Numbered from the stretch's first letter, positions 1 to 4,345 are shown. The stretch is 4,345 nucleotides of DNA from a virus (IMGVR_UViG_2740892487_000004), one strand, 5' to 3'. Numbers and translations: made by a program. Notes: a model not told the origin generated them from the letters alone.

Positions 1-635
1 GCGCTGATTTTCTTACGCCGCAGTTCATCGTGACAGAGCCGGGTGTCGTAAGCGCCGTCTGCCGATGCTGCCCTGATTTTTCTGTGAGTCTGCCGGATAA
101 GACCCGGGAAGCTTCTGAGTCCGTCACATTGTTCAGCGACAGGTCTGCACAGATGATTTCATGTGTGTTGCTGTCAACTGCCAGATGCAACTTTCGCCAT
201 ATACGACGGCGTTCTTTGCCGTGTTTTTTGGACTTTCCATTCGCCTTCACCAAAGACCTTCAGCCCGGTGGAATCAATCACCAGATGCGCGATTTCACCC
301 CGGGTGGGCGTTTTGAAACTGACATTAACCGACTTTGCCCGCCTGCTGACACAGCTGTAATCCGGGCAGCGTAGCGGAACGTTCATCAGGGCAAAAATGG
401 AATCAATAAAACCCTGCGCAGCCCGCAGGGTCAGCCGGAATACGCGTTTAATCACCAGAACGGTGGTGATGGCGAGATCAGAATAGCGCTGGGGCCTTCC
501 TCGTGAAGAAGGTGTTGCTGACTCATACCAGGCCTGAATAGCTTCATCATCCAGTCAGAAAGTTATGGAGCCACGGTTGATGAGGGCTTTATTGTAGGTG
601 GGCCAGTTGGTGATTTTGAACTTTTGCTTTGCCAC
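1..635 (-). pseudogene. IS903-type transposase, disrupted (one in-frame stop and two frame changes); C-terminal part lies beyond window start
   Basis: Start candidate GTG 635..633. An in-frame TGA at 557..555 falls at the position of a Trp in the recalled IS903 protein, within the otherwise matching motif F-[W]-LDDEAIQAWYE. The frame then stays open to a TGA at 176..174. The conserved transposase sequence continues only after a +1 shift near 222-232 and a -1 shift near 103-115. Confidence 0.75.
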
Positions 636-712
636 GGAACGGTCTGCGTTGTCGGGAAGATGCGTGATCTGATCCTTCAACTCAGCAAAAGTTCGATTTA
701 TTCAACAAAGCC
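500..712. repeat. Left arm of a 213-bp inverted repeat (IS903-like end), partner at 4135-4345
   Basis: The reverse complement of 4135-4345 aligns with 500-712 with 2 substitutions and 2 single-base indels (about 98% identity by hand alignment). The right arm stops at the window end, so the true repeat is probably longer. Confidence 0.9.
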
Positions 713-2164: not shown

Positions 2165-2329
2165 TATAATAAACTTACTTTTTTATCATTTTTCCACTTT
2201 AACAACATTTTGCTCCACTTTTCCACGACCAAACAACTTGAAATCTGGTTAAAATAACACGCAACACTATTCTTCTTCCTTGAGTCCGCCCGGAACTCGA
2301 AAAACAAACCGAGTTAAAGCCATTTTTCA

Positions 2330-2343
2330 CAAAATCGATTTTG
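2330..2343. promoter_or_regulatory. Perfect 14-bp palindrome CAAAATCGATTTTG inside a roughly 26-bp imperfect dyad, about 140 bp upstream of the recombinase gene; candidate protein-binding site
   Basis: Direct reading of 2323-2350: TTTTTCACAAAATCGATTTTGGGTCTCA. Function is inferred only from position and symmetry. Confidence 0.25.
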
Positions 2344-2480
2344 GGTCTCACCAAAATTACGGGGTTGCATACGCATTCGTTTATTTTCGAACGTGTACAT
2401 AAAAATATGCACAAAAATAATCAAAATTATTTTCTGAGATGCATTATGATATGAACACCAATTTCGTATAGAGTCTCACT

Positions 2481-3071
2481 ATGTCTCGAATTTTTGCTTA
2501 CTGTCGGATATCAACGCTGGATCAGACCACCGAAAATCAACGCCGGGAAATCGAAAGTGCAGGTTTTAAAATCAAACCTCAGCAAATAATCGAAGAACAC
2601 ATTAGCGGCTCAGCAGCAACCAGTGAGCGTCCTGGTTTTAACCGGTTGCTTGCTCGCCTGAAATGTGGTGATCAATTGATTGTGACAAAACTGGATCGCC
2701 TTGGTTGTAATGCAATGGATATCAGGAAAACAGTGGAACAACTGACCGAAACAGGTATCAGAGTGCATTGCTTAGCATTGGGGGGCATTGACCTGACCAG
2801 TCCAACAGGAAAAATGATGATGCAAGTAATTTCAGCAGTCGCTGAATTTGAACGAGACCTTTTACTTGAACGCACTCATTCCGGGATAGTAAGAGCCCGG
2901 GGCGCAGGGAAACGTTTTGGTCGACCACCTGTGTTAAATGAAGAACAGAAACAGGTGGTATTCGAACGAATTAAGTCAGGTGTAAGTATAAGTGCCATTG
3001 CCCGGGAATTCAAAACCTCGCGGCAAACCATTTTAAGAGCCAAAGCAAAACTTCAGACACCTGACATATAA
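2481..3071 (+). CDS. pinQ: Serine recombinase of the resolvase/invertase family, PinQ/PinR-like (196 aa)
   Basis: Full ORF. The N-terminus [20 protein letters not shown] carries the catalytic-serine motif R-I-S-T-x-D-Q. GRPP at residues 147-150 and a C-terminal helix-turn-helix ([18 protein letters not shown]) are typical of the Gin/Hin/resolvase family. Length and context match E. coli PinQ/PinR as recalled. The Shine-Dalgarno sequence is weak (GAG 2471-2473). Confidence 0.9.
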
Positions 3072-3168
3072 AAAATAATCTCGGTGTGAGATGCTTTACG
3101 TCTTCCAAGCCACCTTCCTTGCCGTAAATGGAAAGATACATCTAATTATAGAATTTATATGTTTTACC

Positions 3169-3744
3169 CTACGGCAGTGCTGGCCATTCAATATCCTGTG
3201 CAGTTGACGTATCAACACGGTTCAGCAATACCCGATACTTTTTCCATGCTTCCAGCAACGAGATTTCTTCCTCCGTTGCAATTTCCAGATCTGCAGCATC
3301 CTGAAGCGGCGCAATATGCTCACTGGCTACCTGCATCAGGCTGTTTTTTGTTTCTTCCGCCTCCCGGATCCGGAACAGTTTTTCTGCTTCCGTATCCTTC
3401 ACCCAGGCTGTGCCGTTCCACTTCTGATATTCCCCTCCCGGCGATAACCAGGTAACATTTTCCGGTAACGGACCGAGTTCAGAAATAAATAACGCGTCGC
3501 CGGAAGCCACGTCATAAACCGTTTTACCCCGATGATCTTCAACGAGATGCCACGATGCCTCATCACTGTTGAAAACAGCCACGAAGCCTGCCGGAATATC
3601 TGGCGGTGCAATATCGATACTGTTTGCTGGCAGACCTGTATGAGGCGGAATATATGCGTCACCTTCACCAATAAATTCATTAGTTCCGGCCAGCAGATTA
3701 TAAATTTTTATGGTCCGTGGTTGTTCACTCATTCTGAATGCCAT
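3169..3744 (-). CDS. tfaQ: Phage tail fibre assembly protein (Tfa chaperone, 191 aa)
   Basis: Full [52 protein letters not shown]..., recognised as the TfaQ/TfaR/TfaE family. Its ATG (3744..3742) overlaps the stop of the upstream tail fibre ORF (TAATG), consistent with translational coupling. Confidence 0.9.
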
Positions 3745-4133
3745 TATGCAAGCCTCACAATATAGTTAAATGCGATGTTTTTGACGGTGTTTTCCGCGTT
3801 ACCAGCAGCGTTAACGGTGATGGTATGTCCATGTGAACCAATCGCAACGGAGTGCGTATGAGCACCAATACCGACAGTATGTGCGTGTGCACCTGCGCTT
3901 GCAGCAGTACCCGATACAGAGTGCGTATGAGCGCCTGCAGAAGAAGTGTTAACACTGTATTTAGAATAATCAGGTGATCCACTTCCCGGAGCACCACTGG
4001 AACCACCTGAAACAAATGTCATCGAATGGGTATGTGCACCGGCTGAAGCAGCCGTACCGCTAACACTATGGGTATGCGCACCAGTGTTATTCGTGGATTT
4101 AGTGCCGTAATCAAACGACGATGTGGTTTTCGT
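3744..4133 (-). pseudogene. stfQ: Side tail fibre protein, C-terminal 129-codon remnant; 5' part removed at the IS junction
   Basis: Track ORF 3744..4223 (-). Residues 31-159 ([37 protein letters not shown]...[11 protein letters not shown]) are typical of the lambdoid side tail fibre C-terminus with His-x-His repeats. Residues 1-30 ([30 protein letters not shown]) are encoded by 4223..4134, which is IS903-like terminus sequence, so there is no native start. Confidence 0.8.
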
Positions 4134-4134
4134 C

Positions 4135-4345
4135 GGCTTTGTTGAATAAATCGAACTTTTGCTGAGTTGAAGGATCAGATCACGTATCTTCCCGACAACG
4201 CAGACCGTTCCGTGGCAAAGCAAAAGTTCAAAATCACCAACTGGCCCACCTACAATAAAGCCCTCATCAACCGTGCTCCATAACTTTCTGGCTGGATGAT
4301 GAAGCTATTCAGCCTGGTATGAGTCAGCAACACCTTCTTCACGAG
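4135..4345 (+). mobile_element. IS903-like insertion sequence, partial copy B, inverted relative to copy A; runs off window end
   Basis: 4135-4153 is GGCTTTGTTGAATAAATCG. GTG at 4212 opens [21 protein letters not shown], then the frame breaks at TAA 4279-4281: copy B lacks one base relative to copy A in GGAGC-CACGG and another in CAGG-CCTGG. Confidence 0.85.

Follow-up and report, generated by a model that had tools for sequence, protein, structure and literature searches.

The window, by which we mean the whole 4,345-nucleotide stretch of DNA analysed here, corresponds to the right end of the Escherichia coli Qin cryptic prophage (99.8% identity across 95% of the window length). The gene order at this end of Qin is ydfJ'-ynfT-ydfK-pinQ-tfaQ-stfQ', with two IS903B copies on the outside, and the ydfJ fragment followed by ynfT and ydfK lies between the first IS903B copy and pinQ. 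The features of the window are as follows.

1-712, minus strand: IS903B copy, interrupted by the window edge and sitting inside the host gene ydfJ; an IS5-like IS903B transposase is annotated in the 99.8%-identical strain 81 locus.
2276-2280, no strand: TTCCT, left copy of the target-site duplication; the identical pentamer stands directly outside both terminal repeats, also in a sister lineage (L037).
2281-2318, plus strand: IR_L, degenerate Tn3-family terminal inverted repeat, matching the family repeat GGGGTCCGCTTGGAAAACGGAAAATATCCTACGCTAAG at 23/38 positions in the correct orientation.
2330-2343, no strand: perfect 14-nt palindrome CAAAATCGATTTTG, in the 47-bp spacer at the presumed former place of tnpA.
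2368-2393, plus strand: remnant of the site I position (presumed crossover site), with its left half destroyed and the right half TTTCGAACG.
2408-2439, plus strand: remnant of the site II position, TGCACAAAA-N14-TTTCTGAGA, with two mismatches per half.
2445-2470, plus strand: remnant of the site III position (ATATGAACA ... TTTCGTATA) with a likely -10 box, TATGAT, proximal to pinQ and of putative promoter function.
2481-3071, plus strand: pinQ, small serine recombinase of the Tn3-family resolvase (TnpR) lineage, 196 aa, with the Ser11 codon at 2511-2513.
3080-3114, minus strand: IR_R, degenerate right terminal inverted repeat, 24/38 matches without gaps, supported by a gapped alignment, with a 3-nt deletion.
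3115-3119, no strand: TTCCT, right copy of the target-site duplication, the same pentamer as at 2276-2280 and likewise present in L037.
3169-3744, minus strand: tfaQ, tail-fibre assembly gene (Pfam Caudo_TAP, E 9.8e-43), a neighbour outside the 834-bp element described below.
3744-4134, minus strand: C-terminal part of stfQ (side tail fibre gene), comprising the final 130 codons with a Pfam Phage_fiber repeat and truncated by IS903B.
4135-4345, plus strand: second IS903B copy, end only, inverted relative to the first; one matching record (H4) has two IS903B copies.

The tail-fibre genes are convergent with pinQ and the fibre gene is truncated, both as originally predicted: stf is interrupted at 4135 by the IS903B end, whereas E. 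coli ATCC 8739 keeps a full stf of 1007 aa. Within the first IS903B copy, the ORF at 177-455 matches Pfam DDE_Tnp_1_5. The inverted IS903B copies enclose a 3.4-kb ydfJ'-pinQ-stfQ' segment in a layout that resembles a composite transposon. They are two 1-nt indels apart in 213 bp (arm offsets 533/534 and 571/572), which represent either real frameshifts or assembly errors. In the assembly of strain 81, our best match (L001, 1-5654), the genes dcp, ydfG, rspR, ydfI and ydfJ, all upstream of the region matching the window, carry frameshift annotations, a hint of indel errors in the strain 81 assembly and possibly also in the source of the window. In addition, the motif TTTTCCAC occurs twice at 2191-2236, with a related GCTCCAC copy in between, in the AT-rich spacer 3' of ydfK.

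The original prediction described pinQ as a Pin-type serine recombinase retained beside a tail-fibre module that has no invertible segment. Gin (Mu/D108), Cin (P1), PinE (e14) and Hin are Fis/enhancer-dependent DNA invertases. The predicted absence was confirmed in the window by several lines of analysis. Long inverted repeats are confined to the IS903B ends (500-712 versus 4135-4345), as had been noticed, and the remaining pairs are imperfect and at most 24 nt long. A scan of the window for gix/hix/pix-type sites (TCNNAAACCNNGGTTTNNGA, up to three mismatches allowed) gave no match, and hence no gix/hix-like pair flanking tfa-stf, which had been named as contrary evidence; the same scan of the intact Qin-like prophage of ATCC 8739 gave one three-mismatch match, which is the chance level. 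Neither the repeat search nor the pattern scan detected in the window an adjacent segment with 26-bp crossover sites (TTnTCnnAAACC-nn-GGTTTnnGAnAA) in inverted orientation at its ends. Eleven phage records, from 10 distinct phages, encode PinQ at 99-100% identity; of these, the gene order was inspected in HannyBb, whose PinQ is 100% identical. A second tfa'/stf' set is absent both from HannyBb and from the intact ATCC 8739 prophage, which has the same stf-tfa-pin order; since these two also lack a second fibre set, the missing invertible segment is a trait of the phage lineage and not the result of decay in the window. The absence of a local segment was itself already known, because PMC12529663 says explicitly that PinQ does not invert the DNA beside itself.

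The dyad at 2323-2350, singled out originally as a notable site, holds the single perfect palindrome at 2330-2343. Its significance was not borne out, as 13-22% of shuffled sequences contain such a palindrome. The palindrome, together with the dyads overlapping it, was therefore rejected as a recombination site; it also lies outside the stretch homologous to res and has no partner within the window.

The ORF of the recombinase is full length, in agreement with the original prediction. PinQ contains a complete Resolvase N-terminal domain (PF00239, profile positions 1-144 of 145, E 2.5e-36) and a C-terminal HTH_7 domain (PF02796, positions 1-44 of 45, E 3.8e-11), the domain combination shared by the TnpR proteins of Tn3 and gamma-delta/Tn1000; this assignment of domains is unambiguous. 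Two substitutions, R3Q and V159A, set the window protein apart from K-12 PinQ. An NCBIfam search returned weak sub-threshold matches alone (Mpi, XisF and CcrB) and was uninformative. While the invertases PinE, Gin and Cin share 75-82% identity with one another, PinQ is only 35-38% identical to them (38% to PinE) and 33% identical to gamma-delta resolvase. In a neighbour-joining tree, PinQ was placed in a clade apart from the Gin/Cin/PinE invertases, so that identities and tree alike put it outside the tight Gin/Hin/Cin/Pin clade. PDB sequence scores were 105 bits for Gin and 83 bits for gamma-delta resolvase, a difference that is not decisive alone. PinQ and the invertases are alike in being phage-borne small serine recombinases of comparable length, but the region of the recognition helix differs (SRQTILRAK versus STLYKK).

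The closest relatives of PinQ (59-85% identity) are plasmid and Tn3-family transposon proteins distributed across Proteobacteria and hundreds of plasmids. In four loci, Tn3-type transposase sequence was found divergently upstream of such relatives (61-84% identity). Both the DDE_Tnp_Tn3 and the DUF4158 domains are present in Shewanella (L013) and in the E. coli plasmid pRM10386-2 (L030), and truncated ORFs with the N-terminal DUF4158 domain alone in an Oxalobacteraceae locus (L016) and in Parasedimentitalea (L019). The Shewanella glacialipiscicola element is a transposon of ~9.4 kb whose ends are Tn3-type terminal repeats (37-38/38), and the pRM10386-2 element (IncFIB/IncI plasmid, 1824-5637) is a minimal 3.8-kb IR-tnpA-res-tnpR-IR unit in which tnpR stops 9 nt before IR_R; the terminal repeat of these elements probably resembles that of Tn5393/Tn163. 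Half-sites of the form TGTNCGAAA (at most one mismatch) number four to nine in seven relatives (L013-L017, L030 and L031) and three in the more distant L019; their positions relative to the ATG are conserved, at approximately -115/-98, -75/-52 and -34/-21. They form pairs between tnpA and tnpR: a 26-bp pair closest to tnpA, a 32-bp central pair and a third that overlaps a TATAAT/TATGAT box closest to tnpR. These repeated subsites look like a res site, and we use the name res on the basis of this resemblance. The half-site TGTNCGAAA presumably also resembles the gamma-delta site I half GTCCGAAAT. Compared with the pix half-site TTCTCCCAAACC, it matches at 5/12 positions in register and at 8/11 on a 1-nt shift.

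Several loci recovered in this comparison have unusual arrangements of their own. In Erwinia oleae (L017, 1268-2652), two PinQ-family genes stand head to head across a 203-bp spacer with nine TGTNCGAAA half-sites, as though two res/tnpR modules had fused. In Photorhabdus cinerea (L015), a perfect 38/38 Tn3-family terminal repeat at 5253-5290 begins inside a PinQ-family gene, which it cuts short near codon 161; this resolvase gene was hit by the insertion of another transposon of the same family. The lambdoid phage HK225 (L035, 4998-5546) has, immediately next to attP, a gene for a Gin-like invertase (51-55% identity to Gin, Cin and PinE) with no annotated invertible segment; this gene has a better claim than pinQ to being a genuine orphan invertase.

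Further support for a transposon origin came from the DNA surrounding pinQ. The gene lies within an 834-bp element (2281-3114) that has degenerate 38-bp terminal repeats, a TTCCT duplication and decayed res subsites but no transposase gene. The terminal repeats are of the GGGG...ACGCTAAG type shared across the Tn3 family; both are correctly oriented and sit at the homologous offset. IR_R begins 9 nt past the pinQ stop codon, the same offset as that of the 37/38 repeat in the pRM10386-2 element, and its terminal CCCC is kept in K-12 and L037; the similarity of IR_L extends about 10 nt inward, likewise in the Shewanella and pRM10386-2 elements. IR_L on its own is modestly significant, since 3% of shuffles reach 23 matches somewhere in the window, whereas none of the 200 shuffles contained two matches of at least 23. 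A 5-bp duplication is expected for a Tn3-family insertion, and TTCCT is present at both ends. The insertion point lies 48 bp past the tfa stop codon. We searched for an empty site, in which the flanks are joined by a single TTCCT, in 5426 E. coli genomes and ~50,700 phage records; no spanning record was found and all alignments broke at the junction. Because no unoccupied site was found in these genomes and phages, the case for a transposition event rests on the terminal repeats, the target-site duplication and the homology.

The homology to plasmid and transposon DNA begins at 2403-2424, and window positions 2424-3110 form a contiguous blastn alignment with the pRM10386-2 element at 83% DNA identity, from 57 nt 5' of the ATG into IR_R. 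The three subsites of the window are collinear with the res of the relatives but degenerate. The site I remnant aligns with their 26-bp subsite TGACCGAAA-N8-TTTCGTACA, and over the eight specified positions of TGTNCGAAA its left half has four mismatches and its right half one. The site II remnant retains the 9+14+9 spacing of the relatives' TGTCCGAAA-N14-TTTCGTACA, and the site III region is collinear with their TATAAT/TATGAT box and ATTCGTACA-N4-TTTCGTACA pair, with one mismatch to TGTNCGAAA in the right half. A Tn3-type transposase gene (DDE_Tnp_Tn3 plus DUF4158) is absent beside pinQ in the window, where only 47 bp separate IR_L from the res remnant; since tnpA is missing here yet present in the relatives, the element is a deletion derivative. 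The relatives thus share with Tn3-family TnpR/res systems a divergent tnpA, three subsites of res-like half-sites in between and a site III beside tnpR, whereas the window has lost tnpA and has a degenerate res and degenerate terminal repeats. The pRM10386-2 and Shewanella proteins are 84% and 77% identical to PinQ, respectively, with the same subsite spacing as the window, but these elements keep tnpA (stopped prematurely in pRM10386-2), near-perfect terminal repeats and half-sites with at most one mismatch. Gamma-delta resolvase is more distant, and its site I is 28 bp rather than the 26 bp presumed here.

Two further observations concern this region. When 3200-4230 of L037 was compared with 2200-3200 of the window, the 300 bp 5' of the gene were 98-99% identical and the coding region was diverged (synonymous divergence ~0.2), a pattern that indicates mosaic recombination inside the element. 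A 21-nt direct repeat (1549-1569 versus 2457-2477, 81% identity) links the ribosome-binding/site III region of pinQ to a spot near ynfT; it was considered as a second res remnant and rejected, as its flanks carry no more transposon homology and the repeat is probably due to chance.

The original prediction also held that the catalytic motif is intact. This is correct for the serine motif, as Y7, R9 and S11 are present together with R73, and position 39 is Glu in the whole family where Tn3 has D36. It does not extend to the equivalent of Arg71, which is replaced by Cys76 (codon TGT, 2706-2708) in alignments to both Gin and gamma-delta resolvase. PinQ therefore lacks the full essential set defined by Tn3 Y6, R8, S10, D36, R68 and R71. 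In Tn3 resolvase, six residues, R71 among them, are considered crucial, and the R71A and R71K substitutions abolish recombination and slow cleavage ~1000-fold (PMC2794168). Arg occupies this position in the pRM10386-2 and Shewanella elements, in Tn3-family TnpR and in the invertases. It is also found in 112 of the 120 closest homologue clusters, among which Cys is limited to the PinQ/PinR clusters and P0009, a sister prophage lineage with 85% identity that likewise lies beside tfa. The codon is TGT in the prophage gene and CGT in the transposon copies, and K-12 PinQ also has Cys at this position.

Taken together, these data make it probable that pinQ is the tnpR of a transposase-less Tn3-family fossil and that its product today binds DNA rather than inverting an adjacent segment. 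A Tn3-family transposon would have inserted 3' of the tail-fibre assembly gene, in the stretch leading from the tail-fibre genes to attP, in a phage ancestral to the lambdoid Rac/Qin type; the transposase gene would then have been lost, leaving a remnant with the order TTCCT, IR_L, short spacer, decayed res with three subsites, pinQ, IR_R and TTCCT, with site III and the promoter beside the gene. Judging from this anatomy, there would never have been an invertible tail-fibre segment, and the place beside tfa/stf would be incidental. Because the Arg71 position is Cys and the cis site has lost one half of its presumed crossover subsite, PinQ would be poor at strand exchange of its own and most likely cannot perform it efficiently alone. 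The ORF is kept under relaxed but significant purifying selection, and since it is still selected even though catalysis and the cis site are impaired, its present activity is most likely sequence-specific DNA binding. Through such binding PinQ is predicted to regulate its own promoter, by way of what remains of sites II and III there, possibly with other regulatory or modulatory effects. Several points weigh against this explanation. The raw score is slightly nearer to Gin than to gamma-delta resolvase and the presumed site I has an invertase-like length of 26 bp; the reported effects of PinQ overproduction and deletion on inversion (PMC12529663) imply recombinase activity or a role in inversion despite Cys76; the search for an empty site found none; and IR_L by itself is of modest significance. 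In other respects, the element is comparable to TIMEs and mobile insertion cassettes, non-autonomous Tn3-derived units in which Tn3-family terminal repeats surround a short segment without transposase (PMC4133298); it differs from them in having a resolvase gene and a res remnant, in terminal repeats that are probably too degenerate for mobilisation, and in a single insertion site among the loci examined.

To what extent pinQ is still maintained bears on the strongest of the alternatives, namely that the gene is a functionless fossil that persists through a fairly young insertion and hitch-hiking with a widespread prophage module. The pinQ element (at least 80% coverage) occurs in 2731 of 5426 complete E. 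coli genomes, and almost all copies are at least 99% identical, which would have left little time for decay. The dN/dS of pinQ rises from 0.15 against the plasmid copy to 0.39 against the Cys-bearing sister prophage lineage, and the gene is frameshifted in some copies from Shigella flexneri and E. coli (L023, L024); the decayed res, with half of the presumed crossover subsite lost, and the missing arginine are also in keeping with loss of function. On the other hand, the value of 0.39 comes from a comparison of two Cys76 lineages (33 non-synonymous versus 24 synonymous differences) and lies significantly under the neutral value of 1 (p = 0.0014), the ORF is intact in the 11 phage records, and pinQ is annotated as intact in all 11 full-length matches sampled. 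As judged from these substitution ratios, constraint on pinQ is relaxed yet still present. Deletion phenotypes have also been reported, both in PMC12529663 and in a preprint (bioRxiv 10.1101/2022.03.29.486199) in which PinR is proposed to act as a repressor. We regard a complete lack of function as rather unlikely. The original suggestion that pinQ is under selection for another role is possible in view of the dN/dS of 0.39 and of the trans role published in PMC12529663.

This trans role forms the basis of a second alternative, according to which PinQ, of whatever origin, has recombinase activity and acts in trans on the 1797-bp P segment of e14, whose inversion yields StfE2 and thereby blocks T2 adsorption. 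PMC12529663 (NAR 2025) reports that PinQ protects against T2 through in-trans inversion of the e14 P segment. Inversion reached 88% under PinQ overproduction versus 26-30% in controls and was lowered by pinQ deletion, T2 survivors on PinQ-producing lawns had an inverted P segment, and protection was lost on deletion of stfP, stfE or e14; pinQ/pinR were induced 14-fold by T2 infection. Action of invertases on foreign sites has precedents, for which that paper cites Fin with the Hin segment and PinE with the G segment. However, the same source reports that the P segment is locked in pinE and pinE pinQ mutants, although pinR, 99% identical to pinQ, remains in both and pinQ itself in the single mutant. 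From the locked state of these mutants it follows that PinE is required and that native PinQ/PinR are insufficient, and this, combined with Cys76, makes direct catalysis by PinQ doubtful. Since the K-12 protein likewise has Cys in place of Arg71, a ~1000-fold cut in catalysis would be expected. Furthermore, the skew to 88% (PMC12529663) contrasts with the ~50:50 equilibrium that a simple invertase would be expected to reach, and selection for one orientation may have contributed to it. The PinQ-family half-site also differs from the pix half-site at the level given above. An e14-type P segment with pinE at no less than 95% identity was found in ~340 records, far fewer than carry the pinQ element, which is present in ~50% of complete E. 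coli genomes; because of this rarity, a role at the P segment cannot explain the retention of pinQ generally. Active recombination in trans by PinQ is accordingly a doubtful explanation, a little behind the loss of all function.

The remaining alternative, that pinQ is a Gin/Cin/Pin-type tail-fibre invertase that has lost its segment and is either recently orphaned or retained for another role, draws on its position next to tfa and stf, on the annotation 'DNA invertase' or 'PinR' in several phage records and on the 38% identity to PinE (given also in PMC12529663), but is highly improbable, since PinQ and gamma-delta resolvase are equally distant from the invertases, the proteins most similar to PinQ are resolvases of transposons and plasmids accompanied by tnpA, a res-like site and terminal repeats, pinQ is itself flanked by degenerate Tn3-family repeats and a target-site duplication, its 5' end points away from the fibre genes, unlike that of D108 gin, gix/pix-like sites are absent from the window and at chance level in ATCC 8739, and neither the ATCC 8739 prophage nor HannyBb has a second fibre set. 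We found no link to a tail-fibre switch, the proximity being attributable to the transposon insertion past the tfa stop codon. The label 'Pin-type' is thus supported neither by sequence distance nor by genomic context, whereas the accompanying remark that the protein is closer to resolvases than to Gin/Hin fits the four loci with Tn3-type transposase sequence and the repeats and 5-bp duplication around pinQ.

The derivation of pinQ from a Tn3-family resolvase changes what is to be expected of this gene. The pinQ gene itself is known, but our literature search for pinQ or pinR tied to Tn3-family transposons found no such paper, and neither the transposon origin nor the missing arginine was found in the literature searched. 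In about half of complete E. coli genomes, pinQ/pinR are annotated as 'DNA invertase' or 'Pin', and 'Pin-type invertase' is a misleading name; a new class of phage defence has been founded on PinQ as an invertase (PMC12529663). A protein that looks like a decayed Tn3-family resolvase, with its own recombination site decayed and its cleavage arginine missing, shifts these expectations, and as the apparent leftover resolvase of a broken transposon it is not expected to have a local invertible segment. The locus clearly illustrates how lambdoid phages can carry a transposon fossil in the non-essential stretch that separates their tail-fibre genes from attP. A more far-reaching proposal, which we put forward only tentatively and hold to be unlikely as it stands, is that PinQ and PinR are catalytically crippled resolvases, captured from a transposon, that through exaptation now serve Rac/Qin-type phages and their hosts as DNA-binding proteins, and that the anti-T2 defence is independent of PinQ catalysis. 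If so, PinQ would bias or stimulate PinE-catalysed inversion or change gene expression, and a dead recombinase would regulate the DNA switch of another prophage.
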